From Spizellomyces punctatus DAOM BR117 (Eukaryota): a stretch of DNA of 64,000 nt. Made by a program: the position numbers and the translations under genes. Below the pieces are notes generated by a model. The model saw nothing but the letters and a program-made list of their open reading frames with translations, did no database searches and had not been told where the DNA came from. Positions 5,701 to 46,724 of the stretch are shown here, piece after piece (within the stretch, counting starts at the first letter, position 1; each line of letters begins with the position of its first letter). The stretch lies in NCBI GenBank assembly GCA_000182565.2, contig KQ257461.1. The stretch is one strand, 5' to 3'.

Positions 5701-7002
5701 CTCATGCTCATCTGGCTCAACAACGTTGAGGAATCTGCTATTGATACGACATACTGTGGGTCTGCCGCGAATCACATTTTCTGCTGCCATGCATTTAGTC
5801 GCACTTTGCTTTGTGGCATATGCTAGAAAGCAGGACGATCGCCCGCCCTTCTTAGTAGGTAAGATTTTGATTTCGGAAATGGCTCCATGTCGCTCAAACA
5901 CTTGGCGCAGCTCGGCTTCATTTGCGTCAGGTGGTAAATCGCCAATCCATAAATGACGTGTTTGCAATGAACCTTCTTGCATATCCGACGAAGGGGGACT
6001 TCCTGGCCGCCTTGAAGATGGCGAAGACTTCCGGCCGCGCTCCCGGCTGCTCCTTCGGGAACCATACCTGGAATCATAGTATGAGGAATCGGAATCACTA
6101 TCGCTGCGATAATCTCGCCTGCGGTCTGAGCGCCGTCTGCCTCGATCAGGACTTCTTTCCCTGCTTCGGTCTCTGCGACCTTTTCGGTCCCTACTGTCAT
6201 CCCGGTAATCTCTCTTACGATCTCTATAATCACCATCGCCTCGGGCACCTCGACCACGTCGATCATCCACACTACCTTCACTGTGTGCAACTGCAGTGCC
6301 AGGCATGCCTGGCTGTTGTGCACCGGTCAGGTTGAGCATGGCAGCATTCTGACCCGCTCCTAAAGCCTGGCCCAGAGGAAGCTGCTGATTTTGCACTCCC
6401 AAATTTCCCCCCTGAAGAGCATTCGGAAGCAGCGCCACGAGAAGCCGTGCCAATTGCTGCTGCTGTTGGAGTTGTTGAAGTTGTTGGAGCTGCGCTTGTT
6501 GGAGTGGCGTCAAATTCTGAACATTTGTAGCGGTTTGAGTTTGGGCAGCAGGCTGCAATCCTGTTGCGGTGGCACCTGATGCCCCAAATGGAGAGCCTTG
6601 CACGGCAGCTACTGGTGCTTGCTGTTGACCAAATGCGGGGTGCCCTTGCTGACCGAAAGTCGCGGTCTGCTGTGTGGCAGGAGACTGAGGCCTCTGCATT
6701 TGCTGTTGCTGTTGCTGAAGCTGTTGAAGCATCGCTTGCAGAGCATTGGCTTGGGATGGAGCTCCAGCAGGAGCTGATGTCGGCATGACATTTGGTAATG
6801 GATTGACAGCGCCAGCTAGAGCATTACCGAGAGGACCCAATGGATTCATTCGCTGGTTTCCGGGTTGACCAAGGCCGATTTGATTGCTTAAGAATGGAAG
6901 GGCGTTTTGGAGTTGCTGTTGGATTGGCTGCTGGCTCTGATGACCAGGTTGTTGTTGGCCTTGTTGGCCTGGCAGATTTCTCTGCCACGATTGATTCGAC
7001 AT
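2782..7002 (-). CDS. Spen/RBM15-family-like RNA-binding protein: Q-rich N-terminus, RS/RD region, about 6 RRMs, C-terminal SPOC domain; 4 exons
   Basis: Introns 5582-5684, 5286-5381 and 3576-3640 join the ORFs in frame. RRM motifs (HLWIGDLP, SLYLPMVP..AFVNF, LHVTNLPP, AFIQYDTVESA). C-terminal IALKTKQATVDVHLLSGN..IKLTQRF..IVDYFASKETGGIAY..VKILPPS parallels the Spen SPOC domain. Confidence 0.8.
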
Positions 7003-8534
7003 ATCTATAATGGGTAACTTTGCCGGGAACAACTGGCAGTCACTTGGGGAGAAAACCTTTCGATCGAATATGGGTCTTTTGACAAAACGTCTTTTGATAA
7101 AACGATGCTATTAAAAAGAGAACGCTCTTTTAAGTGGTTTCCTGAAATATGAAAAAGGTACACTTGGTAAGCACATGAGCCAGCGCGCTTGCTTTGTGTG
7201 GCAACGGGGACGTGCACGACGTGCACACTTGCGTTCAAGTTGGGTACTTGCTCGGTCACTTGCCGACTGCTCAACGAACCTTCAAGCTAATGAATTGTGG
7301 GGCATATGAGAATGGACACGCACGCCAGTTCTCTTCTGATGAAGGCAAGTGGATGGATAAGCGGAGACGTGGGACACTTGTGGACGTGCTCTTTCTACTG
7401 TCGTTCACCAATAATGCGTCTCACTCTGCACAACACCAATGTCCACACCAATGTATGATTTCCTTGAAAAAAGATTGGAAATTGGGGAATGGGCGGTGGG
7501 GGGGAAATCGATAACGCAGGGTTCCCGGGAGCAGTTGAAACTTTTAAAGGAAAACATCACGTGCGGGGCGTGTCGGTCTTTCGTAAGCAACCCGCCAACG
7601 AGCGATTCCGTTTGCTTTTGGAATCGTTTTGCTTGAACGTGCGCACTGCATTACAAAAGTGTACATACAGATGAATTCAACTCCATAGCAATCAACTGTT
7701 TTTCAAAAAGCTCCCATCCTCAACCAGCACCCAAAGAGACGTGTGGAATAAGCACAAAAACATGAGCAAAAGACCATCTCGGAATGCGCAGAGATGCTGA
7801 CCTGCAAAATATCTGCCATGTTCCCATTGCCGCCATTTGACGTTTGCCTTTGCGCAAAAGTGACATCTCCACCCTACAAAGCGATATTCCACCAATGCAA
7901 ATGTCGATCGTAAAAAACCTGCAGGGGATGATAAAGTTCATTAAAGACTCATTTAACCTGATTTGGAATAACGTTTCTCGTGTCGCGCCTCCCTTCTGCA
8001 ATTTGCAAGTCGGCCTGGCTGCTCTTCCACCGAATATTCCCCCCTTGTTGAAATTCCTTTTTTTTTTATTATTCTCCATAGCCTGCCTTCTTCCCATTTC
8101 TCTTGTGGGTGAACGGCATCGGCAGACCACAAGACTGCAAGTACTGTCAACAACGGGCTGACGTCCTAAAAGGTATGCTCGCTTAACCACCCGGAGAGTT
8201 GTCTCTGTCCCGCTTCCCATGTCCATGCTCAAACCATGCCCTTGCATTGTCTCTTTCAAAAGCCACCCGTCAGCTCGCTACCAAACTGGATGTTTTATGG
8301 TACTTGGTGGAATACTCAAATCAAAAAGCAAAGCTTGATTCGTGATATCCAGCTTTCTCAAAAGATTCAGCCTGCCGGATATTCATGAATGGCCACCGCA
8401 AAGTGACCGTCGAGTTCGGCATATTGGCGGAATCTTGATCGACCCGAGGCGAAAAGGAGTAGCATCCCTTTTCATACCTGTCCTGTCCACCCCGTGTCAG
8501 ACACAGGAGCGGTGGGAAGGAGCGGGAGTGCGCT

Positions 8535-17195: not shown

Positions 17196-18984
17196 ATGGC
17201 TACATCCCAAACTCAAAAGCTCAGTAGGGAGGACTTTAAAAGACAGAAGGTTATTGAGGAACAGCGTAAGGCGTAAGTGCAAAAACTTATGATTTGTTGG
17301 ACTCTTGGCCGTTTCTGAACCCCCAAATTGCAGTGGTACCCTACCTGCCGAAGTCGACCCAGAAACCGGCCGTGACATCAATCCCCACATTCCGCACTAC
17401 ATCTCCCAAGCACCATGGTATCTTGATATCAACCATCCAACACTCAAGCACCAACGGTACCAACCGAAACAAGAGGGATCCATTAATGACTGGTACTCAC
17501 GGGGGGCACGACAAGGACCTGCAGCAACCAAATATCGAAAAGGCGCCTGCGAGAATTGCGGCGCCATAACGCATAAAACAAAGGATTGTGTGGAGAGGCC
17601 GCGAAGGACGGGTGCAAAATGGAGTGGAAGGGATATTCATGCTGATGAGGTTATTCAGGAGGTGTCTCTTGGGTTTGAGGCCAAGCGGGATCGGTGGAAT
17701 GGTTACGATGCGGAGGAACATATACGTTTGGCTGAGGAGTGGGAATTGGTTGAAGAGGAAAGGCGGAAGCTTAGGGAACAGCAAGTAAAAGAGAAGGAAC
17801 GGTTGGAAGCTGAGGGAAATGTTCCAGAGCAGCCAAAGGTGGAAGCGACTGTCGCGAACGACAAAGCGGCAGATTCATCCACCAAAGCCGGGTTGGCAGC
17901 TGCTGGGGACAGTGATGACTCTGACGAAGACGAAGATAAATACGCTGACCGAGCCGACATGCCTGGCCAAAAACTTGACACCAAGACACGCACAACGGTC
18001 CGCAATCTTCGTATTCGAGAGGACACGGCAAAGTACCTTCTCAATCTTGATGTAAATTCCGCATACTACGACCCGAAAACTCGCTCCATGCGCGATAATC
18101 CTCTCAAAGATAAGGATCCCTCTGAACTTACCTACGCTGGTGACAATTTTCTCCGATGGACTGGCGATGCACCCAAATTGGGTCATTTGCAGGCGTTTGC
18201 ATGGGAAGCTGAAGGCCGCGGCAAAAATGTTCACATGCAAGCCAATCCCACGCAAGCCGCCCTCCTTTATAAACAGTACCAAGAAAAGAAGGGGACCGTT
18301 TCGGAAACCCTCAAATCATCCATTCTGGACCGCTACGGCGGAGCCGAACACTTGGCGGCACCACCCAAAGAACTCCTGTTGGCCCAAACAGAGCAATATG
18401 TAGAGTACTCCCAAACTGGACGCGTCATTAAAGGCCAAGAACGAGCGGCAGTCAAATCCAAATACGAGGAGGATTATCATCCTCTCAATCATACCTCCGT
18501 TTGGGGCTCCTGGTGGAAGGATGGACAGTGGGGATATGCTTGTTGTCACAATATGACGCGAAATGCGTATTGTACTGGTCAAGCTGGTATTGAGGCTGCT
18601 GAAGCATCCAGTAAGCTCATAACAGCAGAGGAACCGGTACAAGAGAAACAACCGCAGAGTTTATTGGAACAATATGTCCTCCGCGCCGCTAAAGAAGGGG
18701 GACCCACCGAACGAACACAAACCATTAAACCACGCTCTGAGCGATTGGGTGAAGGTGAGATCAAATTGGATCCAAAGAAGCTGAAACAAGCTGTGGCAGA
18801 GGAGCGAAAACGGAAGATTCTGGAGGAAGAAGAAGATGATAGGAAGAGCAAAGGGAAGAAGAACAAGTACGGGAGTTCGAAAGGGGGTATGGATGTTACG
18901 GAGGAGGAGCTGGAAGCTTATAGATTGAGTAGGACCATGGGGGAGGATCCTATGGCAAATTATGTCGATAAGGAAGAGGATTGA
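17196..18984 (+). CDS. SLU7: Pre-mRNA splicing factor Slu7, 2 exons (intron 17273-17333)
   Basis: SREDFKRQKVIEEQRK|AGTLPAEVD..INPHIPHYISQAPWY; zinc knuckle CENCGAITHKTKDC; RNLRIREDTAKYLLNLD; WGSWWKDGQWGYACCH. Confidence 0.95.
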
Positions 18985-25434: not shown

Positions 25435-25890
25435 TTCCGCAATGTCCCAGTTGAAATAAAGGAGTAACTGCTCGAAGAAGGGGGATAGGAAAGGAGATTG
25501 CTACGCGGGAAAGGCGGCGGCGCGTTCAAACACGGCTTATGGAGGGAAGGCCAGTTCCGTTGGATGCTTCCTCTTGCGATATGCCTTCCGATATAAACAA
25601 GGGAAGAACAAAAGGCCCTTCAGGGTAAAAAACAAAAAAAAAAGATAAACGACGACGAGACGAACGAAACGACGACAAAAACTAGCCAAGAATGTCAAAG
25701 TTAAAAAAGCCTCCGCAGCAGAAGCGAATGATTTTCTCGCGAAAAATCTCCTCGCGTGGCAGTCTTTGCTGCAAAAGCAACCCGCAAGCCTTCCTTCTTG
25801 TTGGCATGGCAATAGTGGCACAGTTGAACACGCTAGGTAAGCGACCTTTTATGTGAGATATCCAACCAGATGCGTATCTCGTTTTCGTCC

Positions 25891-28800
25891 ATGGAAGAGC
25901 TACAGCTTGAAGATGATGGACGACGGGAGGCGTCGGCATCAACTTTTATGTCATCGAGATCATCCGTGGTCAATTATGCATGGAAAGCAAAAGATAGTGT
26001 TTCTGAACTTGGGCCAGATTCTCCCTGCCATTCAGCTTTAGCGTTGCGAGCAGATTTTATGCCACCAGAGCACGATCCTGCCTATCTCAAAGCAGAAGAA
26101 GATATTAGGAATGCTTACAGAGAACTCAACAATGTAATTGGAGATCATCCGCCACCTGCACCACCTGAACCACCGACAGGGTTTCCTTCAACAGGCGCTG
26201 AGGGCACATTCGTCAAGAAACGGGTGAAAAAGAAGCGTCTCTCAGCAAGTGCACTGGCCCAAAGGAAGAAGGTGAAGCAAGCAGCCCGTTATGAATCCGC
26301 ATTACCAAGTAATCGTTTACATACACGACCGCAAAGCGCTGGTCGTCGACCAGAAACGCCTGGGCTGCCGGGGTTGACAGGGCTGCAGTATGATTTACAA
26401 GCCGTTACCAGGGTCCTTGCTCAGCATATACATCCAGAACAAGAGCCTGCAGTTTATGACAACACACAGATATATACGCCACTATTGGAATCTCCGGATT
26501 TGAGAAGATCATGGAGATCTTCGTCCACCCTCCCGCTATCGAGACCAACATCAGCACGCGTAGGAGCACCCAAAAGTACGGCCACCACCAGACCTCAGTC
26601 GGCAAGGACTTCAGGCCAAACATCTGGCAAGCCCACTCGACCGAGTACTGCCAGATCAAATCGGACGGGATCTGCAATCCGTCTCCACAATGGCCCAAGG
26701 CGGCTTTCTGCAGGAAACGCGCTTCAGCGACGACTAGAGACTGAATTAATGGCACTTGCTCCTAACGCCGAACCCAGCCCCTTCACCGGGGGCCTTGTCA
26801 CGAGTGCAATGCCAGACTGGGTGAGGGCCTCCACACCTCCGCCTCCCAACGAAACATTTATAGAAGCTTTCCGAGATCCGTACAGGGAGGTTGATGACCA
26901 CCTGGCGTCCAAAATGCTTCTCGAATGGTTTGATGATCCCGAGTTCGAGGTGAGACCTCTTGCTACAACCGTCAACGAAAGGGCCGTACATAACTTAGTG
27001 CATATAAAAGACGCATACAACAGAGGAATGGTTAGCTATGGGTAGACAAAGCGGCCACAAGGGAACGCCAGCTTTCAGTCGCTATTTTAGACACACGGAT
27101 ACCGAAACCGAATGGGATTGGCTTGAATGCCTGGTCCTCGACTATGATCGGGAAACACAACGCTACCTTATCGAATGGCTGCCATCAGGCCCGCAAAAGT
27201 TTGTCAAACGCCTCAATCTTGTCTTTAAAGAAGAGAATCGCGAATTATTTTACAAGCGAATCGAGAGTGCCATCAGGGCACGATCCCTGGCAGCAGAGGA
27301 AGCAGCGTACCTCGAATCCATTGATAGAGAGGATAACAGCGTGGTTTGTCCTCTTCCACGTTCCTTCAAACGGTCTATTCTCAAAAGGCTCGGCTGCTCA
27401 ATCAGCTCGAACCAATTGAAAATGGTGGATGCAACTATGGAGCAAGTTGAACGGGATTTCTTGTTCAGCATGAAACGCGCTACTAGGGAATTCTCCCACG
27501 GGCCTTTTGCGCATGTACTCCAGCAATCAACAGCAAGATCGGAGCGCTTTGCCGAGCTTGCCATGATGCGGTCGGGGACAAGCGCAGATGACCCCCAAGG
27601 ACACATTTTTGCACAGGTCGCGATTGCCACTCGGGATCTGTCCACGTACATGTTCAGCGCCAATGCCAATGTACAGAAAACTATAGTGGAGATTCTGGCT
27701 GCTTTGCGAGAGGTCCTACCAGTGAATGAATCATTTTATCGAAAAGACTTTGGATTTCCGTCTTTATTTGCAACCTTTTGTGAACGTGCCGAGACTCATG
27801 TTGACCTTGTCGTCGCTCGTCTTACCAACGAGTGGACAAGAAAGATTTGTAATGTCATGGAGGCCATGTTGGGCGATTTCTTCAATTTTAGAGAAACAAA
27901 TGAAGCCGTGTACAATTCCAGTCGTCTCAAGAATTTTTTGCGACTCGTAAATACCATTATGGAATCACAACTGAGGAGTCTGTTACTGGACAGTTTCAAG
28001 ACGTTTTTATCTCTTTTTAATGTGAATGTCACATATCGGAATGCTTCAGAAGAAGAAAAACGTAAATACACCATCAAGTCGCCATTTAATACCCCTGGTA
28101 TTCCGATACCTCTGTTATTCATTCTCAATGTCACGGCACACACGGGAGATGGCACCCTTGTACCTCCTTCGCGGCAGGTGGATGGGTTTGCAGTCGGACG
28201 CCAGGCGGGCGTCGTGTTGGATCACTCTTTGTCCGTGGTGGAAGAAGCACTCAAAGCGGTTTATTTGATGCCCGCGACAAAAACCATCAAAGCAATTCCT
28301 CATATCGAGGTGGTTGCGATGTACGCTTTGTACTCTGACGTCTCTACAAACTGGCTACACACATCTTTACGGAACGAACTCATCATAGATGATGGGATGG
28401 CGTTGATGATGGAAATCTTGCAACAAGCTTATGCAGAAATCGATAAAGTCGTTGCAGGCTACAAAGAATACGAATTCCTGCTACAAGAAACACTAGATGA
28501 AGGAGTTTGGGACGAACTGACAATTGATCTAAACGACTTGGAGGATTACCTCCAACGATTCTACAATGCGTCCAAAAAGATTGACAGCATTTCACCCGCA
28601 CAGATCGAGATACCCCCGTTCCTCCTCAACTGTACGATGATCAAGAAACTCTACCAACATTGTACTCAGACGGTTCTGGAGAACCTCAAACAACGCATTT
28701 TGACGCGTTTGGTAGAGAGTTGCAGTTTTTTGGCAACGGCCTATAGTGATCTATATGGACAAGTCTTGAATGATCCGGGACAAGATGCTATCCAATGGCA

Positions 28801-31800
28801 AATGCTCAAGACAGCAGTTGACACGTGCATGGAGCAGATTGGGCACTACGATGAGCAGGTTGGTGCCACGTCCTGGAATTCGATTGATCATGCATAGTGA
28901 TTCAACTGGTCTCTCCACAGTTGGACGAATTGAAAGCGATATGGCAACTGATGTACGATTACGAAATGCCGTTGGATGAGGAGATTAACGATCTGTACTG
29001 GACAACATGTGCATGGCCAGTCAAAGTGGCTGATGAACTGGACCGGGCTTCGGAACGGTTGACCAATGCTCGAGCACGGATTATGAGCCAGGTAACAAAG
29101 TTAAAGCTGACATCCATTTCTCTTTCTCAATTCTCATGTGTGCGTAGATCGAGATTGACAAGGAGTTTGTCATTAACTCTGTTCAAGCTTACCGAGAAGA
29201 AGTCCAAACGTACCTTGCATCCGCGGATAATATTGAGCGGTACAGCGATATGGTCAATCGCGTTCACTACCTTCGCGAACGCATTGACCGGGTGAAATCT
29301 CTGGGAGAGGCTATTCCATTGCAAGAACAACGAATTGGACTACCAGTGACCTCCCTTATCGAACTTAAGACGTTAGAGAATGACTTCCAGCCATACGAGG
29401 AACTATGGAAGCTAGTGGGTGGTGTTCGGGACCGTTTGGCAGAGTGGCTGGACTCGTATTTTGCGGATTTGGATGCACAGACGATGTTGGAGAATGTCGG
29501 AAGTTGGAAGAGTACTTTGAAAAAACTGTCTCCTGTTTTCCTGGATGCACCAAAACCCCAGAGTATTACCATGAGCATTGAAGCCGAAATCCTGGATTTC
29601 GATCGGTATATTACTATTATTACATCGCTGCGTAACCCGGCCCTACGTGACAAGCACTGGATGGAAATGTCCAAAATTGTTGGTATTACGCTGCGGGATA
29701 TAGCGGGGTTGAAACTCCGGCAAGTGCTAGAGCTTGACTTGGAATTGGTCCAGGATATATTAGCAGAGATTAGCAGGGAAGCCAGTTCTGAGTGGGAATT
29801 TGAGCATGAGCTGGATGTGATGCGCACAGAGCTGTCTTCCCGGAAATTTGTCGCTGTCCAGTATGTTACGCCAGAGTATTACCTTATCGAGAATTTTGGG
29901 GAGGCCATGTCGGTTTTTGAAGACCTTTTGATACGCTCAGAAAGCCTGGCGCGAAGAGCGTACGTTGAAGTCCTCCGCACGAAAATCGACGGATGGATGA
30001 AACGACTCTGCAAATGCCAAGAAACCCTCCAAGAATGGCAGAACTTGCAAATGATCTTTGCAAAGCTGTACCCGGTTCTTCGCCTCTCTGGTGAAATATC
30101 GGCTCTCACTCGTGACCAAATAGAAAACTTTATTGCCATCACAAAACTGATGAGCATTCTTTCGGATGTGGTCACCAAGAACAGGAAATTCAGCACGGTT
30201 CTTCTTCGGAGTGATCTACATGATATGATTGCCGGTGGACTGGCAAGAGTGGACATTGTCATGAAGGGCATCATAAAACTCATTGAAGCAAAACGGGAAA
30301 AGTTCCCGCGGTTTTGGTTTTTGACCAACGATCAGGTGTTGGAGATGGTGTCCTGTTTACCGGATGTCCGAGCTTTGAATCCCCTTTTGGGCAGGTGTTT
30401 TGATGGAATATCGCAGTTGGTGTTGGGCCAAGTTGAAAGAGAGGCTGCATCTCTATATCCTACCGTAATTGAATTTGATAGTGGAATTCCTGAAGATGTT
30501 GCTGGTGGTTCAGACCATGATATTGCGGTTGATCGGTCAAGGGAGGCTAGTTACCTATCAGCTGGTGCAGGACCAGAAATCAAAATAGGGGAGACGCTGA
30601 CCTCCATTCCGAGTTTTTACACGAAGTTATCCTCATCCTTCTCCATTGGGTCACGGAGACGAACGATGCAGCGTGTACAAGAACCCGAAGTTCACGTCCC
30701 AAGAAACCTCAAGTATGTTTTGAGCGAGTCGATGGGTATCGAGATTCTGGGTGTTGAGAGCTTTGAAGGGGAGCAGTTGATGCTTCGGACACCAATTTCA
30801 GTGACGACTAAAGTCGAGGACTGGTTAGCAGAGCTGCAAGATGGTTTACGGGACAACCTCCGCAAACAGATTGCATTGGCGTTGGACAATTCGTCCGAAA
30901 CAATTCCTCTTGCCTCATGGCTTCAGTCATACCCGCTCCAAGTAATCCTGGTCGCCGCCAACATCAAATGGAGCACATATCTCAAAACATGTATATCCCA
31001 AGGAACGGATTCTGCTATCAAAGAATTTCGCAAGAGCTTGTGCAAGGAGCTCGATGACATTATTGGACTGTTGAAGCATAATACACCGCCTCTTACTCGC
31101 CAAGTAATCGAAACCCTCATCCTTGCCCTGTCTTACGTGATTGAAACGACAAATGGAGATTTACCCAACCTCACTGCACCGGACTGGATCAGTCGTCTCC
31201 GATATGAGATGAGCGAGGATGGGATTGTGAACGTCCACATGATGCATCATACAGTCAAATACGGGTACGAGTACAATGGAACATCGCCGAGGCTGGTTAT
31301 CACACCGGGTATCAACCGATCCATGGCACAGATCATGACCTTGCTTCGGTACGCTGCTAGTCCTGTGCTCACGGGTTCGGGTCTACAACGTGAGACTCTA
31401 TGCGAGTTGTCAAAGGCCGTCGGTGTACGATGCGTTTTGGTAGAGTGCGCAGCAGAATGGGTTCCTGGTATTCTCTCCCGGATTATATCGGGGATGCTGA
31501 GTACGGGGTGCTGGCTCTGTTTGGAACATCTTGATCGACTTGCTGAGGAGGATCTGTCAGTAACTGCGCACCATATCGGAACGGTGTATCGAAACTTTGG
31601 TATGGCTTCCAAAGCACGGCGCTTCAAGTTTGCCTATGATGGAAGAGAGTTTGATGTACATGATACTACAGCTGTTTTTGTCACATATGGGGGTCAAAAG
31701 CCCTANNNNNNNNNNNNNNNNNNNNNNNNNNNNNNNNNNNNNNNNNNNNNNNNNNNNNNNNNNNNNNNNNNNNNNNNNNNNNNNNNNNNNNNNNNNNNNN

Positions 31801-34800
31801 NNNNNCCCGACCTGTGGCGGATAGGGATGCCCGACATGAAAGTGTTTGTTGAGACGGGCTGATTGCGCGTGGATTCCAGCGTGCTTCTATCCTTGCCAAG
31901 AAGATAGTTGCCGTTTTTAAGAGTCTTGGAGGGATATTCCCCACCTCCAATGAGTATGATTTTTCGGTTAAGAAAGCGGCGGCTGTTGTGCACGCTGCCG
32001 GGACGCTTCTGGTGAGAAAGGGGTACGAGGTTGCGAAGGAGGTTTCGACTATTGTGGAGGCGCTGAATATGGTCGTGGGACCACAATTGCGAAAGAGGGA
32101 TACGTCGCTTCTACAGGATGTCGTTCGGGAAGTCTTTGGCGAAGATCCGAAAGGCATATCCATGATAAGGATAGAGCAAGCTGTCCAGAAAGCAGGATTG
32201 GAGCTCGGAATACCCATATCAGACTACCTCCTCCAAAAATCTATCCAGTTATACGAATCTCTCACACATTTCCAAACTATTTTCATTGTCGGCGATGCTA
32301 TGTCTGGCAAATCGACGCTGATCCACCTTCTCCACCATGCCTTGGATTCGTTGGACAAGGACTCTATCGTAAAGTCATTACAAGTCTATGACTGTCATGC
32401 TGGAGCCATGGACGAAAAACAATTGGGCGGATACTATGATGAAGCCACCAGTCAGTTCATTCAAGGCGTGCTCCCCACCATTGTATCCAAGGCCAACGAG
32501 CATGCAATGACGGTGGAAAGAAACCAGGAAGAGGACGACAGATCTGAAAATCTTGTCGGATCATCGTGGATTGTAATGGACGGTGACGTACCCGCCCATG
32601 CAATGGAACGAGTGGGTGAGCTAGAGAGAGATAAAACCGTTTTCTCATCCATATCAACCGCAATGCATCTCGGCAAGTCTGTCAGAATTCTACATGAAGC
32701 AACGTCTCTTAAACACGTATCGCCCGGAATCGTCTCCCAAAGCGCCATCATACACATGAACGGGGATCAAATCTCGATGGACCATATTCTCCAAACTGAG
32801 CTCAAAGATCTCCGACCACATCTAGAGACCCACTACAGTTTTATTCAAGCCATGCAGCGTCACATTGGAAACGCCATACTGGATTTCATATCCTCTACAA
32901 CCACGCTCTTGGCCTCCAAGCGGATTCTGGTCGCCCAGGCTTGGCGTATATTTGCTTCAGTCTTTGATGAGTTGACCGTGGACGGTTTTGGGCGGTTCAC
33001 GGTGTCGGAAAAGCTTGCATGGATCGTAGCAAGCTATATTACGGGAATATTGTGGTCTGTTGGGTGTTTTCCGGATATGAAGACGAGACGAAAATTGGAT
33101 GCGTTTATCAAGACGCAGGTACTGACGACGGCTCTTACCGAGCTGCGCGAAGAGGCTAAATTAGACGACGGGTGCTTCAAGGTCGTGGTGGAGGTTCCTA
33201 CAGATGGGACCGTGTACGATTATTACTTTGATGCACGGCTCTTGCGCTGGAAGCCTTGGAAAACACTCCCCAATGAGCAGGATCTTGCTGTGACTGTACC
33301 GCCCGGTCTGGAAGGGGCAGTCGCAACGGACGACATTATCCGAGTTTCCTATTTCATGCGACTATTGACCAATCGAGGACATCGGGTGATGGTGGTTGGT
33401 GCGCCGGGAACAGGAAAATCTACTGCTGTGCGATGCGGGTTGAATGAGGAGAACTTGGAAGGATATAATGGTGTACCAGTCTTGGTATCCCTGGTGAGTG
33501 AAACGCGAGCTAAGGATCTGAAAGCACAGTTGGAGAAGAGGTTGATACAGAAACGCCGGGGAACGATCGGATGCGTGGCTGGGAAGAGGCTATATGCATT
33601 TATAGACGATGTTGGGTATGAGAATGACGGTGCTGATTCTGTGTTGGAGTTCTGGAGGACGTGGATGGAGCGGGGAGGTTGGTATGGTGGCCAGAATGGG
33701 ACAGACTGGGTGACAGTTGAAGGGCTGTCGATCGTTTCTGCCATGAACTTAAATCCAGGGACAAGCACAAGGATTTCCCCGCGATATCTTCGTCACTTTG
33801 TTCCTATTGCCGTTCACGACGATTTTTGCGCCAAGTTAGAAGAAATGACCGGCAATCTTTTAACGGATTCATTGGTGAACATTATGGGTCCCGCGCAGGA
33901 TGGATTCCATGTATCACTCCTAAAGGCGACCCAGGAACTCTTTACAACCGTTCAAACCCTCTTTCTCCCCACCCCCGTTACACCGCAATACAGATTCAAC
34001 CTTCGGGACGCTTTGAGCGTCCTGCGCGCTGTGGCAAATCAAGCAGAGACAGAAACTCTGACTACTGCTATCGTGCATATGTGGGGACATGCGTGCCATC
34101 GGGTGATGCGTGATCGCTTAGTGGAAGAGGATGCAAAAAAGCGTTTCGACGGCGCATTTAAAGAGGGTATTGAGAAATGGTTTGATGGCATCGCCTATCG
34201 CGATGTGTTTGCAGAGGATGATCCAACGATTTATATGCCGAGTCATACGGGGTGGAGGGGAACGTTAACGCAGCTGAGAAAGTCCTGGAAACCCATTGAG
34301 AGCATCTACGAGTTTAGTCAGCGACTCTGTTTTGATTTGCCAAGTTTGGGGGATACCAGTCCAGAAGACGTTCGCTCCATCATGCATGTTGATGGTGTCG
34401 GAACCGCGCTACGGATCTGTCATGGGTTACGTGAGGGACATGTCGTCCTCTGTGGGTATCATCATGGGGACCGGTTCCTGCTGACCCAACTTGCAGCTTG
34501 GATGGCGGGGATGGTGGCGATTGAGCACCGGTATCCAATGCAAATAAACGAAACGCTGGCATCCGTCTTCAAAACTGCAATTCAACAAGACCAGTCTATT
34601 GTACTCTATCTAGAATGGAATGAAACTATTGCAACGTCATCTGAACTCTGCTCGGTCCTGAAATGGGGATATTCGGACCACATCTTCGAAACCGTTCTTA
34701 AAGGAAATATACTGGAAGGTTTTAAGGAGCGGTTAAAACGTGGACGTGACTCGGCACCAGTGACAGACGACACTGTTTACCATCGCTTTGTCTCTTACAT

Positions 34801-37800
34801 CTGCTCCAAAATCCACATTATCCTTTCCATTCCTCAAGATCACCCAAACAACGAAGGCACATTTGTACGTACGATGGTCAAGTACCCCATTCCCTTTGCC
34901 ATGAGTACTCTGCAATGGATCCCGCCTCACAGCAACGAAACCCTCCAATATAAATTCAAGCCCATTACACAACTCCCCATTGCAAAACACCACCTCGACC
35001 TGCTCCCAGGACTGTTTTCAAAAATCCACAATGAAGCTCCTGTACCAGTTTATTCCACACCCATCCTACACAACACATCCCTTTATACTGCCGTGCGTAT
35101 CTTTGTGAGGTTGTACACGGAAAAGCATGCGGTATGCATGGAAGAAGTCGACGGGGTGCAAACGACGTTGGAGAAATCCGCTTGGGGAATGAGTGTTGTG
35201 AAGGGATTGGAGGAGGGGCATCAAATGTGGAAAAAGACGTTCGAGGAGACCACGAGGCGGACAAGGGAGTATTTGAAGGATATGGAGGATGAGAGGGAAG
35301 GTAATCAAAATAACGTGAACTAATAATGCATTTTTCTCAAACATGCTGAAAACGTTTGTTTTATAGCGTTGGATAAGGCCAAGGCGGATATCAACAAGGA
35401 AACAGACGGACTGGATAAACTCGTCACAGAGTGGACGGACCTCAAAGCCGCTTATGGTCGACAAATTGAAAAAGTCTTGCCAGCCTTGTCGGCTGCCCAG
35501 AAAGCTGTGGAAGCTATATCCCGAAACGAGCTTTACGAGGTATCCAAAAAGGCTGCATTTAAATTCTACATTCAAACATTATTTTTGACCAATATTTTAT
35601 AGATTAAATCCATGATCAATCCCCCACGGCCCGTTCAAACCCTCTTTGAAGCCCTCTTGATTCTCTTTCGATTTGACCTCCGTCCCAATGAAACGCTGTG
35701 GGAGGCCTCCCGTCGCTTCCTTTCAGACCGATTCACATCCCATATAGCGGCATTCGACCCAGAAAGCGTCTCAACACCACACATGTTGCGAGTTGAAGAG
35801 TGCATATCGCAGCCAGAATTTCATATTGCAGATTTAAATCGGATTTCGAGAGCAGTGGGGATTTTGGCGGGGTGGGTTATTGCAGTGCAAAAGTATCATA
35901 CAATGATGGTATCGCTCGCTCCGCTAAAGAAGGAGGTGCAAGGCCTTGGGGTGCGAGTGGACGAAAAGAAGGCCTTCGTGGCAATGGCGACGGGACGTGT
36001 CAGTGATATGGAAACGCGATTGAGCACCATGCGATGCGAGTTTGATCGGCGGATACGCGAAAAGGAGGAAGTTTTGGCCAAGTTTCGGGAGGCGGAAGCG
36101 AGGCAAAAGGAATCAATGAGGATAAAGGAGGCGTTGGAATTTTGTAAGGGGGTTTGGGAAGGGGAGGTGAAGGGGTTGGCTGAGAAGCAAAGGGTGCTGC
36201 TTGGGGAGACGTTGTTGGCAGCCTGGATGATAGCATACTTGGGGGGCCACGACCTCCAAACCCGACAGTCACATCTCACACACTGGAAAAGCCACCTCCA
36301 ATTATCAAATATCCCAATTACGACCTTTTCGCTTTCAAGTTACCTTTCCGACGGGCGTATACACGAAATGTGTCTTACCGCGCGTGCATATCTGGATGAG
36401 AGTACTTTCGATGCATTGTTTATCAGCAAGTACACGGAAGCATTTCCATTGTTGTTTGATCCGCTGGATCGTGTATGGCCTCCCTTGCAAATGGTGGAAA
36501 GAACCGTTGATGTCGTGCGGGACGGAAAGCAGCTGGTACGCGCAATGCGAAAAGGGATGTCTGTTATTGTTGAAGACGGCCCTGATATCGAACGAGTGGT
36601 TTGGGATGGGTTTGGAAGATTCGGAATGGGCTTTGAGACGGTTGTCCAAGGGGAAAAGGTGATCGTTGATCCCGGGTTTCGAATGTACGTGTTGATGCAT
36701 CGGAACATGGGCATCGACGCGGAGTGGCAAAAGTATTTGGCGCATATTGACGTGTCGGTTTGCACGGATGGAATATACGCGCAACTCTTGGACGCTATCC
36801 TCCAAAAAGAGGATCCACGCTTGTTTGACAAGAGAAATGAGCTCAATACAGAGTTCCTGGCGAATAAGCACAAATTATCGACCCTATCCAAGCGAGGCCG
36901 TGAGTTTTTGGTCCAGTTTTCGGAAGCAGACATTTGGGGAGGGAACTTGTACGCTTCCTTAGTGGGTGTTCACGAGCAAAGTATGGCAATCCTGCAAACA
37001 GGCAAATCGCTCCGCCAGCTGGAACGGGATCTACGAACGCACTTAGAATGGTATGAGAGTATAGCGCGGTTTGGTGCCACTTTATGTCATGTCGTCATCA
37101 AGATGGGACGAGTCAAGCCGTGGTGGTTGATGCGTATGGAAACGATTATTGAGTCCTGTGTGAGGGGGTTGGGATCCATACCAGAGGGGAATGCAATGCG
37201 ACTTGCCGAAGCGAAACGCGCGTGTGTGGGTGAAATGCTGCGGTTGGTGAAAGGGCTTGAGAGAGGGGAGAGGGTACTGGTAGGGTTTTTGATGGCCGTG
37301 AGCACAGAGGGTATACACCTCCCGGATGCTTATCGGTACTTTATAATCAACAACCGTGCTCCGCCGACACATAAATCTCACGAGGAGATACCCAATCCGT
37401 CACCGATCTGGCTCGCACCCCAAAAATGGAACCAAATCCAGTCATTGTCGAAACTTCCTCCTTTTGATGCCGAAAAGTTTAGTTTGGATTTTGTTCGGTT
37501 TGCGAATTTGGCAACTACACCAGAATTTGAGTCAAGCTGGGAGGCAGTATATAGAGCACATGAGCCGTGGACGGCGAAATTTCCGCACAAGTGGGCGAAA
37601 TTGGGGATCGTGGAGCGGTTGCTGGTGCTAAAGTGTTTGAGACCAGATGCAGTGTGGAAGGTCATGGAGGAAATTGTTGGGCGAGTGTTTGGAGATGTGG
37701 TGGATGTTGAGCCTGGTGTTGTTGCAGAGGTTGTCGAAGCGTCTATTGCCTATAGGCCGATACTCTATGTGAACGTAGGTTGCGAGGAGGATCCCATGGC

Positions 37801-39576
37801 TCTTGTGAGGGCTGTGGCGAGCCGAAAGGGAATGAGTAGCTCTTGCTTCTTTGTGGCGGTTGGGAGAGGTGTGGATGTCGAAGGGATTGTCGAGGAAGCT
37901 ATCGCGAAGGGCCGATGGGTAGTGCTATTGAATGCAAACCTCTTGGACGGACGGACCTTGCAAGTCCTTGGAAACCGGTTCCAAAATATGACCGACAAGA
38001 CTGTCCATGCTAATTTCCGATTATGGATCTGTGTCGATTCCACTACGGCCCTTTCTCACTGGTATTACCTCCACTCGTTGACCTTGATCTCCAATCCCAC
38101 ACATCTTCCCCGACGGCTCCTCGAATCCCTCTCAGCCATCGCAGACCATCTCAACCCGTTTGAATTTAAGGCAACCCCGGCATATCGAACAGCGCTCTTT
38201 CATCTTGCCCTCTTTCACACTGTGATGCCGATGCGGTACCGATTTGGAGGATTTAACCAAGAGTATATGTTCCTTTTACCAGATTTGAGTGTCGCTGTTC
38301 AAGTCCTTCGTACTGTCTTTGCGTCCAAGAGTGGTGGAAAGAGGGTTTTACATGCGGTGGGTGAGATGGTTTATGCGGCACGAGCGGAGGATAATGTTGA
38401 TCGAAGGGCATTGATGGCATTGCTTGGGGACGTTATTGCTAGCGGATGGGAAGAGGCTTGGGTCAATGTCGTGGATGAGGCAATCCAAAAGGGGGACGTG
38501 GGTCCGGGCTTATTAAGAACCGTTCAAAGTGAGGACATCGTGCCGGAAATGGTGGGATTGAAATCGAATGCCATGGTGCATTTAAATGACGGAATATCAA
38601 GCAATCTGCTCGAGACACTTTGTTGTGCCTATCCAGAGGTTTTGGATGTGCCAATGACACGATTCTCGAGCCTTGTGGCAATGGTACTCGACAGCCTCAC
38701 GCAGTTTGTATCCCGATTGAATGCTGCGACAGTTGGAACACTACTAGATCCTTCGACGCCTATGCCAAACCTGCCTCCCAAATCCACTGAAAAATACCTA
38801 GACAAACTCTTGGTAGATAACATGGTCCAATACCGTGGAATGATCCTCTCCCTCTGTGCCGATGTTACCTCCCTCGTGGCCCAACTCTCTGGACACACGC
38901 CCATTACTCACCGTACGATCAACTTTGTCATGCTTTTGAACGACAACCATCTCCCAGACGAATGGAAAACAGGGCCATATTATGAGTTTTTTGGAGGGCT
39001 TGAAAGGTGGATGGAGGATCTCTTTGAACGAATCAAGTACATTAAGGGGTGGTGGTTTATCCGCTACGAGAGTCATGACCATCCTTTGCGTAATTTAGTG
39101 CTACATGATATGAGCAAGGTGTTTTCTCCACGGGCGTTTATAAATGCCATCATGCTTGACCACACCCTATATCACGAGACACCGACCGAGCTCGAAGCTA
39201 CCATCCTATCCTCTAAGCAAACTTCACCTCCCGATACCGGCTGCTTTGTCTCGGGGTTGGTGTTGGTAGGTGGGGGGTGGGACAAGAGTAAAGGGGGATT
39301 GAAAGAAGGCCGGGATGGGGATGTGGGGATGAACGTTGGTTGTGTGAGTACATGGCGTTATTGGTCTTTTATTCGTTTATGTATTCACTGGTTGTTTTTA
39401 TCTAGCTTTGGATTACCCCCATCCAAAAATCATCCGCCAAGCGTGCTCACCGATATAAGTGTCCCATCTACCTATCACGTCCCATGGGTTTCATCGCGAT
39501 GGTAGAAATGCCTAGTCAAGTATCTTCCAAAACATGGATAAAATGCAACGTGCATTTCCAGTGTACGGCGATATGA
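25891..39576 (+). CDS. Divergent axonemal-type dynein heavy chain (DNAH1-like N-terminus) with degenerate AAA1 and AAA4; spans an assembly gap
   Basis: Six visible introns (26950-27010, 28859-28920, 29092-29147, ~35301-35366, 35540-35602, 39344-39405). Motifs LRNPALRDKHW, REKFPRFWFL, YGYEYNG..RLVITP, GDAMSGKS, GAPGTGKS, QYRFNLRD, MTBD NPPRPV..GWVIAVQKY, C-terminal YKCPIY. Confidence 0.9.
31706..31805. other. Assembly gap (100 N) inside dynein AAA1
   Basis: Run of exactly 100 N, typical of an unknown-size placeholder. Confidence 0.99.
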
Positions 39577-39764
39577 ACGTAGAAAAGTGAACATACAATC
39601 AAAGTGTGTTGGGACACTTTTCCTGGGAGCTGAAAATACCTCTATTTGTCAAGATGCGACTATCCATACTATGCTTTGCTGCTGTTTTCTCTACCTCTAC
39701 CTAAACCAAGCTGTGCTACCAACAATCACTGACTACACTACGCTACAGCGACCTAAACGATACC

Positions 39765-40603
39765 TCAATAATACAACGCTAAATGTGCCATACGTCGACA
39801 CGCCCGTTTATCCGTAAACAAATCACCAGCACCGAGGAGTTTACGAAGTTCCGCGAGTTGCGTCTTGTTCTTCTCGTCTCTCTACAAAGCCAACCATTAA
39901 CCAAAGCCAGTCAAAATCACGAGAACGACAATGAGCTTTTCATATACTTTAAGGATTTTATCTGACTTGTAAATCCGGAACCTATCATCATTGAACACAT
40001 GTCGGCCGATTGCATAATTGATATCATATGTACCTAATAAAACAATCAACATCTGAATCATTACATACAAAATGACAGGGACATACCAGGGCCAGGAACC
40101 ATTGTGAAAGTCTTCAAAAAAAATATAAATAATGACATATGCAAACCAACAAAAAAATTGAAGCCTACTTGAGTCAGTTGTGATTCGAGGCTACTTTTGG
40201 GCGATTTGGATGCTAGGATGCCTAATCTGCTGACAGCTGGTTTATCTAGTGTGTTCAAAAACGGAGGATCGTAGGTGCCTACACCAGGGGACTAGGGTAT
40301 AAACGCTGTCAGACAAGTGCTCTTAATGAGTGTAAAAGATGATTGGTATGGTACCTCAGCGGAGGGTGTCCGAAACCGTTGACCTGTACGAACACATAAT
40401 CCGAGTTTGGAAATGGGTTTATGGGCGCTTGTAAAGGTGGTTGTCTAATCGTACTTTACACACATGCCATATTGTGCGATTTTAGCATTTTGTGAGTGAC
40501 TTACTTGGTCAACGTCATACCCGCCTGGTCCAATATCGCCTGTGACGGGTGGAAGAGTCTTGAAACGTGCCGAGCGGGGACCGTGGAAGGACGTTGTGTG
40601 CAT
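39765..40603 (-). CDS. Pitchfork (PIFO/CIMAP3)-like SHIPPO/PGP-repeat ciliary protein, 6 exons
   Basis: Repeats IGPGGYD, SPGVGTYD, VPGPG|GTYD; spliced C-terminus LFTDKRACRRMAHLALYY* resembles the remembered PIFO ending (..TDK..R.R.AYLSLYY). Confidence 0.7.
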
Positions 40604-45824: not shown

Positions 45825-46538
45825 TTACTCATTCCCCACTTCCACCTCACAGCACTCTGGTTCAGCTGCCGCGGCAAACCCAAATTCCTCCTCCTCTTCC
45901 TCCTCATAGCCAACTTCGAACCTTTTTCGATTCTTACTCCTCGAGTTCCTCGGCCGACCTCGTCGCTTATGCTCCACATCCATACAATCCTCCTTGCCCA
46001 AATGCTTACACCTCCGACAGGGCCGTTGATCATCACATGCCAGATGCGCCTTTTTGCAGTGATTGCAGGCTCGGGTAACTTGTTTGGAGCGTTTGGTGGA
46101 TGGGGAGGGGGACTTCTTTTTTGTGTAAGGTTTTGGTAGCAGTTTTTTCAGGGAAAGGGTCGTACGGAGTTTTTGGCGGGTATAGGTTGAGGGAGCTGAT
46201 GGTGGTGGGGGTATGCGGTGTTTGTGCATATGTTTATGAATGTGGTCTGGATGAAGGTGCTCGGCGTGGACGTGCTCTGGGTGGATGTGCTCGTGAATGT
46301 GCTCATTCAAGTGGTTGTGTAAATGTTCGGCATGTAAATGTTCATGAAGATGCTCAGCATGCAAATGTTCAGAAACATGTTCTTGCATATGAGATTCAGA
46401 ATGCAAATCTGGGTGCATGTGGTGATGATGCTGTTCAGGATGCATCGTGGGCTGAGGAACTTGTGGATCTGGATGTTCGTGTATTCCGTGAGGGGTATCT
46501 GACGATATGGAGGCTAGCCCTCCAATCCTGAACGGCAT
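45825..46538 (-). CDS. Zn(II)2Cys6 transcription factor (Ert1/Gsm1/Rds2-type cluster) with His-rich repeat; may have an upstream exon near the gap
   Basis: VTRACNHCKKAHLACDDQRPCRRCKHLGKEDCMDVEHKRRGRPR; a polypyrimidine/AG acceptor-like sequence lies just upstream (~46560-46580). Confidence 0.82.
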   Translation of the reverse strand: MPFRIGGLASISSDTPHGIHEHPDPQVPQPTMHPEQHHHHMHPDLHSESHMQEHVSEHLHAEHLHEHLHAEHLHNHLNEHIHEHIHPEHVHAEHLHPDHIHKHMHKHRIPPPPSAPSTYTRQKLRTTLSLKKLLPKPYTKKKSPSPSTKRSKQVTRACNHCKKAHLACDDQRPCRRCKHLGKEDCMDVEHKRRGRPRNSRSKNRKRFEVGYEEEEEEEFGFAAAAEPECCEVEVGNE

Positions 46539-46624
46539 TGTAGGTGAATATGGAGGGGGCTTCAAAGAAAAAAAGAAAAAGGACGATATAAATACCAACG
46601 GTACACATGATCAGTGTACATGAA

Positions 46625-46724
46625 NNNNNNNNNNNNNNNNNNNNNNNNNNNNNNNNNNNNNNNNNNNNNNNNNNNNNNNNNNNNNNNNNNNNNNNNNNNN
46701 NNNNNNNNNNNNNNNNNNNNNNNN
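46625..46724. other. Assembly gap (100 N)
   Basis: Run of exactly 100 N. Confidence 0.99.

Follow-up and report, generated by a model that had tools for sequence, protein, structure and literature searches.

A fast-evolving dynein heavy chain family of chytrids with an inner-arm-type tail and a lost AAA1 catalytic site, studied from Spizellomyces punctatus

A stretch of 64,000 nucleotides from the chytrid Spizellomyces punctatus DAOM BR117 (GenBank assembly GCA_000182565.2, contig KQ257461.1), hereafter the window, contains a dynein heavy chain gene at 25891-39576 on the plus strand, made of seven exons and six introns. The AAA1 module of its product, the site where an ordinary dynein hydrolyzes ATP, has lost its catalytic residues, and the loss is common to a family of fast-evolving dynein heavy chains found in 16 named chytrid species or strains. 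Our interpretation, which we consider probable on balance, is that this chytrid-wide dynein, with an inner-arm-type tail and without AAA1 catalysis, acts as a non-motor cross-bridge of the axoneme and most probably represents class 17 of the published dynein classification.

Membership in the dynein heavy chain superfamily is clear: the linker, six AAA modules, the stalk with its microtubule-binding domain (MTBD) and the C-terminal domain are all present, and Pfam domains are found in the canonical order (DHC_N2, AAA_6, Dynein_AAA_lid, AAA_7, AAA_8, MT, AAA_9, Dynein_heavy, AAA_lid_11, Dynein_C). A Pfam search of the S. punctatus protein did not find the DHC_N1 domain, as is also the case in the single-headed arms listed. 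The nucleotide-site motifs were placed by HMMER alignment to solved axonemal dyneins, and their coordinates are as follows:

31371..31397, plus strand: AAA1 Walker A remnant TGSGLQRET, without Gly-Lys-Thr, opposite the P-loop of solved dyneins in the HMMER alignment
31512..31538, plus strand: AAA1 Walker B remnant WLCLEHLDR, with Glu-His in place of Asp-Glu (HMMER alignment)
31674..31694, plus strand: AAA1 sensor I remnant VFVTYGG, Asn lost, TYGG opposite Thr-Met-Asn-Pro
31955..31975, plus strand: AAA1 sensor II remnant YDFSVKK, Arg replaced by Lys (HMMER alignment)
32291..32314, plus strand: AAA2 P-loop GDAMSGKS, intact
32720..32749, plus strand: AAA2 arginine-finger remnant SPGIVSQSAI, Arg replaced by Gln (HMMER alignment)
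33398..33421, plus strand: AAA3 P-loop GAPGTGKS, intact
33593..33616, plus strand: AAA3 Walker B YAFIDDVG, of the axonemal Asp-Asp type, intact
34451..34474, plus strand: AAA4 P-loop remnant CGYHHGDR (HMMER alignment)

The strings on which the original prediction was built lie exactly where it had placed them, and the alignment does set them opposite the canonical Walker A and B, sensor I and II, AAA2 arginine finger and AAA4 P-loop. A catalytically active motor is recognized by the Walker A and B motifs of AAA1, by an Asn in sensor I and an Arg in sensor II, and by the arginine finger of AAA2, and none of these was found. This is a real departure rather than noise, because ordinary dyneins keep these motifs almost invariably: in a table of 60 relatives, retrieved by a search of 1.84 billion protein representatives, the 45 ordinary dyneins show Gly-Lys-Thr in 45/45 cases and Asp-Glu in 44/45. 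The Arg of TGSGLQRET is Cys in the orthologue from Spizellomyces sp. 'palustris', so there is no conserved stand-in for the lost Lys. The Walker B and sensor II remnants differ between the two Spizellomyces species as well; the former catalytic positions are thus drifting, and no substitute catalytic residue is conserved there.

The family was delimited among the relatives. Besides Spizellomyces, it is present in Geranomyces, Thoreauomyces, Borealophlyctis, Rhizophlyctis, Quaeritorhiza, Nowakowskiella, Polyrhizophydium, Batrachochytrium, Globomyces, Polychytrium, Gorgonomyces, Entophlyctis and Terramyces, and every named holder is a chytrid. The family proteins that come after the 'palustris' orthologue (P0006) are 3900-4600 residues long and score 300-680 bits, compared with about 200 bits for ordinary dyneins. 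Motif states were read from 38 rows, 22 of the family and 16 ordinary, with AAA3 and AAA4 states taken from 15 family rows:

AAA1 Walker B Asp-Glu: family 0/22; ordinary 16/16
AAA1 P-loop Gly-Lys-Ser/Thr: family 9/22, none of them in Spizellomycetales rows; ordinary 45/45 (60-row table)
AAA2 arginine finger: family 7/20 aligned rows
AAA2 P-loop: family 22/22
AAA3 P-loop: family 14/15, one row not aligned
AAA3 Walker B Asp-Asp: family 13/15, the other two Glu-Asp
AAA4 P-loop: family 0/15; ordinary 11/12, one row with a gap

Loss of the AAA1 Walker B is therefore shared by all 22 family rows, which is the outcome of the check on chytrid orthologues that had been proposed for this gene. Judged by these motifs, AAA1 hydrolysis is predicted to be impossible in any family member, and ATP binding at AAA1 of the S. 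punctatus protein is very likely lost. The claim that AAA1 cannot be a working hydrolytic site thus holds, and it extends to the whole chytrid family (no row out of 22 with Asp-Glu). Retention of AAA2, AAA3, linker, stalk and MTBD, also claimed, agrees with the Pfam domains, the AAA3 motif rows and the length of the stalk/MTBD. The loop that follows AAA3 sensor I, which is normally conserved, has been lost in the family. As a side observation, the dead AAA4 P-loop (34451-34474) reads Gly-x-x-x-Gly-Asp-Arg in 4/15 family rows and Asp-Asp-Arg in a fifth, a recurring pattern that hints at a conserved role other than nucleotide binding.

Members of the family do not replace ordinary dyneins. In Terramyces sp. 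JEL0728 (P0322 and P0091), and likewise in Globomyces pollinis-pini (P0326 and P0168), a live IAD3-type dynein occurs side by side with a dead member of the family, and since both kinds coexist in the same genomes, the dead dynein is an additional paralogue. Fimicolochytrium, which we take to belong to the same order as Spizellomyces, also has an ordinary IAD3-type protein with a fully canonical AAA1. Ankyrin-repeat Pfam domains occur in two of the ordinary chytrid IAD3-type proteins, P0320 (Boothiomyces) and P0322 (Terramyces), of 4596-4660 residues; they represent either an unusual addition to a dynein heavy chain or a fusion of gene models.

The distribution of constraint along the protein was examined as mean pairwise identity by domain in 12 family members and 11 ordinary single-headed dyneins:

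Tail: family 32%; ordinary 20.5%, a figure lowered because the ordinary set mixes classes
Linker: family 32.5%; ordinary 37.4%
AAA1: family 23%; ordinary 67%
AAA2: family 24.0%; ordinary 43.6%
AAA3: family 23.9%; ordinary 44.7%
AAA4: family 16.5%; ordinary 46%
Stalk plus MTBD: family 24.5%; ordinary 39%
AAA5: family 21.6%; ordinary 47.4%
AAA6: family 23.3%; ordinary 52.9%

The usual order, in which AAA1 is the most conserved domain, is inverted in the family, where tail and linker are highest and the AAA ring lowest. When the two Spizellomyces species are compared, the most similar parts are the tail (95%), the stalk/MTBD (94%), AAA6 (93.6%) and the linker (93.5%), while among the folded parts AAA1 to AAA3 show the lowest similarity (89-91%). 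The stalk plus MTBD keeps an ordinary length (309-331 residues in the family, 318-344 in ordinary dyneins). Judging from these comparisons, the constrained parts are the putative docking end and the end predicted to reach the microtubule. The linker has a peculiarity of its own, an insertion of 52-201 residues in 12/12 family rows, compared with 10-14 residues in 11/11 ordinary rows; the insertion is of low complexity, variable in length and only 18% conserved in sequence among the 12 family members.

A gene that has lost its main catalytic site might simply be decaying, and the integrity of the locus was therefore of interest. The orthologue P0006 is 90% identical, with 359 aligned residues that differ. 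Given the gene's own codons, nonsense changes are expected at about 5.6% of the missense frequency, so that some 20 would have accumulated under neutrality; the 4381 spliced codons contain no stop (P about 2e-9). The replacements that separate the two proteins are conservative (mean BLOSUM62 score +0.21, compared with -0.43 for random missense changes). In contigs of sequencing run X2, four of the six introns are precisely removed at GT..AG and a fifth is revealed by a loose end that runs into exon 6, whereas contigs of run X1 cross the introns unspliced. Because X2 yields spliced contigs and reaches depths of 8-16 from only 16.8 million letters, we infer that it is a cDNA library. Conservation of tail and linker, unchanged stalk/MTBD length, absence of stops and spliced contigs together make the view that the gene is selected, maintained and expressed, and not a pseudogene, well supported. 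The original prediction had spoken of a 'selected' non-motor protein, and with the stop count, the spliced X2 contigs and the family-wide loss this reading is well supported.

The architecture of the gene was established by tblastn with P0006 and inspection of the junctions. All introns are of 56-66 nt and have GT..AG borders:

25891..39576, plus strand: whole gene, ATG at 25891, stop codon ending at 39576 (tblastn with P0006 and with P0169, the annotated S. punctatus DAOM BR117 protein)
25891..26949, plus strand: exon 1, low-complexity N-terminal extension, no Pfam match, 88% identity to the S. 'palustris' orthologue
26950..27010, plus strand: intron 1, 61 nt, GT..AG (spliced contig of run X2)
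27011..28858, plus strand: exon 2, tail, the most strongly conserved region in the family, with homology to the tails of dynein-a type inner arms
28859..28920, plus strand: intron 2, 62 nt, GT..AG (spliced contig of run X2)
28921..29091, plus strand: exon 3, tail/linker junction (tblastn with P0006, frames)
29092..29147, plus strand: intron 3, 56 nt, GT..AG (homology only, no spliced joint)
29148..35300, plus strand: exon 4, linker, AAA1 to AAA4 and start of the stalk, with an assembly gap and frame breaks inside
29364..30437, plus strand: linker (Pfam DHC_N2, E 1e-71)
30426..30749, plus strand: family-specific linker insertion of about 100 amino acids (query 430-530 unaligned against DNAH1 1352-1354)
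31260..32314, plus strand: AAA1 module (Pfam AAA_6 in two halves, profile positions 142-176 within the gap)
35301..35366, plus strand: intron 4, 66 nt, GT..AG (spliced contig of run X2)
35367..35539, plus strand: exon 5, first coiled coil of the stalk
35540..35602, plus strand: intron 5, 63 nt, GT..AG (the loose end of an X2 contig at 35539 consists of the first bases of exon 6)
35603..39343, plus strand: exon 6, MTBD, stalk, AAA5, AAA6 and C-terminal domain
35606..36280, plus strand: stalk/MTBD (Pfam MT, E 8e-9), of ordinary-dynein length
39344..39405, plus strand: intron 6, 62 nt, GT..AG (spliced contig of run X2)
39406..39576, plus strand: exon 7, C-terminal end with the dynein motif Tyr-x-Cys-Pro-x-Tyr (YKCPIY, 39454-39471)

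Start and stop coincide with those given earlier. An open frame of over 4000 codons, as stated earlier, does not exist on the raw plus strand, where five long stop-to-stop frames jointly carry all the quoted strings and six introns, a gap and frame breaks intervene; it is obtained after splicing, which yields 4381 open codons if 31689-31858 are left aside. The last exon supported by X2 encodes the usual C-terminal motif YKCPIY; P0006 ends in a different frame from this exon (junction 39343-39406), and its C-terminus is probably mis-annotated. Two other runs give local signals. The RNA run X19 has appreciable depth only at 39333-39800, in both read directions and just past the last intron, which may correspond to the 3' end of the gene, to a convergent neighbor, or to both. 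In the chromatin immunoprecipitation run X20, a pile-up of about 50-fold covers the promoter and first exon (25500-26453), with depths of about 48-50 per direction compared with about 1 in the gene body.

An assembly gap within AAA1 had been overlooked in the original prediction, whose motif calls were otherwise exact. Three features are involved:

31706..31805, no strand: assembly gap of 100 N within AAA1, with the sensor I remnant before it and the sensor II remnant after it, hiding about a dozen codons by comparison with P0006
31689..31693, plus strand: G run, one G short in the assembly, with the extra G in 4/5 DNA reads of run X20
31806..31860, plus strand: error-rich contig end, where the frame shifts near 31819 and again at the GGG run 31856-31858

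With the extra G at 31689-31693 the frame continues in agreement with P0006, and position 31832 is G and not C in 4/4 DNA reads. After the gap, two frame changes occur within some 40-55 bases, both at G runs, and the segment between them still translates to the orthologue sequence. The depth of X20 at 31806-31860 is about 3, and its reads neither confirm nor correct either change. Since two proven errors lie within the same 130 bases and the frame is clean elsewhere, we regard it as quite likely that both changes are assembly errors. The window matches P0169 at 98.3-100% identity over five tblastn blocks. However, the P0169 model spans the gap and the frame breaks with a false intron (31692-31852), and as a consequence 31 residues of AAA1 are absent from the deposited protein. 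We flag this as an annotation problem, as the public S. punctatus model conceals the gap. P0169, as a 'variant', also reads through the last intron.

The origin of the family was sought in the tail and the linker. Matches of the tail to solved structures are only of the dynein-a type and extend over about 330 residues: 9y6s_6k, 'IDAa heavy chain' (9e-27, the best), 9e5c_6a and 8glv_JG. Dynein-a type proteins score about 100 bits with the tail, DNAH1-like ones about 36 bits. The best ordinary tail match of the family is a Leishmania protein, a close orthologue of 9y6s_6k whose next relatives are DNAH7, DNAH3 and DNAH12. The best solved match of the linker piece, in turn, is DNAH1 (6e-83).

Trees were built with FastTree and IQ-TREE fast searches under the site-homogeneous model LG+F+G4; long branches are present, and their effects are less well controlled because of this choice of search and model. 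In a tree of tail plus linker (45 rows, 1083 columns), the family forms one clade (support 1.0 / 100) that joins the IAD3 group (Kollmar class 7, comprising DNAH7/3/12 and dynein-a) with support 0.888 / 96. DNAH1 proteins and an ordinary chytrid protein form a clade of their own (0.994 / 99.6), and the chytrids' own ordinary DNAH1-type proteins P0171 and P0170 group with DNAH1 at 99.6 and 99.2. A free fast search with 62 rows placed the family basal to the single-headed arms, next to a single long branch, with support 47.8; the constrained arrangements 'family plus IAD3 group' and 'family plus dynein-a group' had a higher likelihood than the free tree and were not rejected. A motor-domain tree (53 rows, 1873 columns, FastTree) is uninformative on origin, as the family appears there as a long-branch clade outside every class. 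Two candidate placements were discarded by approximately unbiased (AU) tests. A clade of the family with DNAH1 costs 142 units of log likelihood with 45 rows (p 1e-101) and 134 with 62 rows (p 3.5e-105), and a position as sister of the chytrids' own IAD3 genes has a p of 5e-5 (62 rows).

On the basis of the tail matches and the AU tests, the family would derive from a single-headed inner arm of the dynein-a/IAD3 type or near it, and neither from DNAH1 nor from a recent copy of a chytrid IAD3 gene; in these trees the precise branching point is unstable. The DNAH1-like origin proposed in the original prediction must thus be given up: the clade is rejected, and the relatives of the tail are of the dynein-a type and not human DNAH1. 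Dynein-a type single-headed arms (9y6s_6k, 8glv_JG, DNAH7/3/12) share with the family about 330 residues of tail homology and the lack of DHC_N1. They differ, however, in being active motors with a fully canonical AAA1, and the family is not the immediate sister of the chytrid IAD3 genes. DNAH1 (IAD4, dynein d, Kollmar class 8) provides the best solved match for the linker, but the tail is not DNAH1-like.

A family of this kind has most probably been catalogued already. As far as its main text goes, Kollmar 2016 (Mol Biol Evol, PMC5100056) recognizes 17 dynein classes, including chytrid-specific ones, and uses tail homology to argue for an axonemal nature of all the new classes; S. punctatus is among the species of its domain figure. 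Class 17 is described there as a distinct motor clade restricted to Chytridiomycota and Neocallimastigomycota, and class 10 as having an aberrant AAA5 and a C-terminal tail of about 1500 residues with seven WD40 repeats. A WD40 match was not found in the S. punctatus gene, which has AAA_9 and Dynein_C and stops shortly after these domains. Because the other chytrid class has a WD40 tail that is absent here, class 17 is the likely home, and the family most probably is class 17, a conclusion reached by elimination and not by comparison with the published class-17 sequences. The likeness includes restriction to zoosporic fungi, full length, a divergent motor outside the nine ancient classes and a tail alignable to an axonemal class, as that text describes them (PMC5100056); all 16 named holders are chytrids and the family is a single clade (1.0 / 100). 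ATP-site motifs and AAA1 loss are not discussed in the main text of PMC5100056, where 'P-loop' is absent and 'Walker' appears in the reference list alone.

Dyneins without motor activity are known from animals. According to the available portion of a preprint by Chai et al. (bioRxiv 2025, 10.1101/2025.01.18.633724), DNAHX is a non-motile heavy chain of sea-urchin sperm with a degenerate AAA1, an animal protein derived from the outer-arm alpha chain that keeps Walker B, holds ATP and carries disrupting insertions in the stalk-MTBD and in the AAA4 small domain. The same portion reports that DNHD1 lacks the catalytic AAA1 Walker B and has a poorly conserved AAA1 and many insertions. The chytrid family resembles DNAHX, so described, in its full length, in AAA1 degeneration as a trait of a subfamily and in lineage-specific insertions; it differs in its single-headed inner-arm tail, in the loss of Walker B from all members, in the normal length of its stalk/MTBD and, in S. 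punctatus, in the loss of the AAA1 P-loop. DNHD1, an animal 'orphan' dynein needed for sperm flagella, shares with it an AAA1 without Walker B and the presence of insertions; by the descriptions available, which are the sole basis of this comparison, it is a metazoan protein of a separate class (class 11; PMC5100056). A Protein Atlas look-up of P0004 returned generic dynein clusters only and no lead to DNHD1. The literature searches made turned up no account of AAA1 loss among chytrid dyneins, and a search for chytrid zoospore proteomes and dynein heavy chains gave nothing relevant, judging from the listing. In the accessible text of a 2026 atlas of the fungal flagellum (PMC13358043) there is no mention of the dead dynein of S. 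punctatus.

AAA1 hydrolysis drives the power stroke of dynein, and inner-arm tails fix the arm on the A-tubule. From these two functions we infer a docked arm that produces no force. The conserved tail would dock the protein on the axonemal A-tubule of the zoospore as an extra inner-arm-like arm, the normal-length stalk would reach the neighboring B-tubule, and the result may be a non-motor cross-bridge (tether, brake or spacer), passive or modulated by nucleotide, that generates no force. Nucleotide at AAA2 or AAA3 would play a structural or at most a regulatory role.

Several observations weigh against this interpretation:

(i). Nine of the 22 members keep the AAA1 P-loop, so the capacity to bind ATP would differ among members and they would lock in different states. 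Such mixed states argue against any role that needs one fixed conformation. The split favors a structural role over a single locked conformation, and suggests that the nucleotide state of AAA1 may no longer matter.

(ii). Both the axonemal site and the tether role are argued from homology, and the assignment to class 17 from the exclusion of class 10.

(iii). Selection was judged from maintenance of the open reading frame and from the quality of replacements instead of from dN/dS.

(iv). The record of run X2 labels its kind with a guess, 'DNA?'; if it were truly DNA, its spliced contigs would be of no value for expression. The RNA run X19, of which about 6% was used, gives 153 reads over 14.3 kb, of which 98 overlap the stretch only in part; at this depth it says too little about expression, splicing or the frame breaks.

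(v). The two frame breaks at 31806-31860 are neither confirmed nor corrected by reads, and a genuine lesion in DAOM BR117 at that place retains some probability.

Other interpretations of the gene were considered. An unlikely one is that the protein is an assembly or transport chaperone, as has been proposed for DNAHX of the sea urchin: a permanently inactive chain that pairs in the cytoplasm with active single-headed dyneins and inhibits them for delivery to the growing flagellum, without forming a stable axonemal arm. DNAHX itself is the precedent, being non-motile, degenerate in AAA1 and rich in insertions as the preprint describes it (10.1101/2025.01.18.633724); the family-wide linker insertion is in keeping with it, and about half of the members, with an AAA1 P-loop and no Walker B, recall its ATP-bound, non-hydrolysing state. 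However, the P-loop is gone in Spizellomycetales, which makes an ATP-locked pre-powerstroke state unlikely for the S. punctatus protein; the stalk/MTBD has a normal length instead of the disrupting insertion of DNAHX; and the most conserved region is the tail, the docking part.

It seems less likely that AAA3 drives or gates microtubule affinity, which would make the protein an ATP-regulated brake or a re-wired motor. AAA3 is the only site with both Walker motifs conserved (P-loop in 14/15 rows, Asp-Asp in 13/15), and linker, stalk and MTBD are retained. Nevertheless, the AAA3 domain has relaxed to the same degree as the other parts of the ring (24% identity, compared with 45% in ordinary dyneins), the conserved loop after its sensor I has been lost, and movement driven by AAA3 alone is not known from any dynein. 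We would give equally little credence to a version of the inner-arm proposal in which an ancient extra chain abandoned AAA1 and, with AAA3 as its only complete site, became an ATP-gated microtubule brake switched by AAA3.

A non-axonemal, chytrid-specific role, for instance in flagellar retraction at encystment or in organization of cytoplasmic microtubules, is doubtful and ranks lower again. The restriction of all 16 named holders to chytrids would fit such a role, as would the long low-complexity extension of exon 1, which has no counterpart in the solved inner-arm chains matched. The tail, on the other hand, aligns over some 330 residues with axonemal dynein-a type chains, and the main text of Kollmar 2016 (PMC5100056) argues from tail homology for an axonemal location of the new classes.

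Orthology of the gene with DNAH1 (IAD4), followed by divergence, or with animal DNHD1 as its fungal counterpart, is very unlikely. The linker does score best against DNAH1 among solved chains, and DNHD1 is also reported without the AAA1 Walker B in the part of the preprint cited (10.1101/2025.01.18.633724). The AU tests against a clade of the family with DNAH1, the possession by chytrids of their own DNAH1-type proteins (P0171, P0170) and the lower tail scores against DNAH1-like proteins contradict the former; DNHD1, by description, is metazoan-specific and separate (class 11; PMC5100056). Lastly, a decaying pseudogene, in which AAA1 losses, stops and frame breaks would all mean loss of function, is scarcely credible: the raw reading is interrupted, the AAA ring is changing quickly and the former catalytic positions differ between two Spizellomyces species, but six GT..AG introns account for the stops that separate the pieces, and five of these introns are seen removed. 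Once spliced, the frame contains none of the roughly 20 stops expected under neutrality, other chytrids maintain frames of 3900-4600 residues, and DNA reads show that the indel and the base error beside the gap are assembly errors.

The surroundings of the gene consist of ordinary genes without functional link to it:

3615-7107, minus strand; 17293-18984, plus strand; 45825-46610, minus strand: RRM proteins, Slu7 splicing factor and Zn2Cys6 factor

A second assembly gap of 100 N lies at 46625-46724.

In the sources consulted, the only non-motor dyneins described to date are animal ones (DNAHX and DNHD1), whose roles are still guesses. The kind of protein is therefore known, and the family itself has most probably been catalogued as a class, but the chytrid family looks like a separate case, fungal and probably derived from a single-headed inner arm: its tail is of the inner-arm type, in contrast with the outer-arm alpha origin of DNAHX. 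It is set apart from DNAHX and DNHD1 by their descriptions and not by their sequences. Within this one family, some members retain the AAA1 P-loop and others have lost it. S. punctatus is reported to be transformable (PMC10267658), so genetic tests of the dead dynein are feasible. If the brake switched by AAA3 were true, the chytrid protein would be a dynein ring re-wired to run or switch by AAA3.

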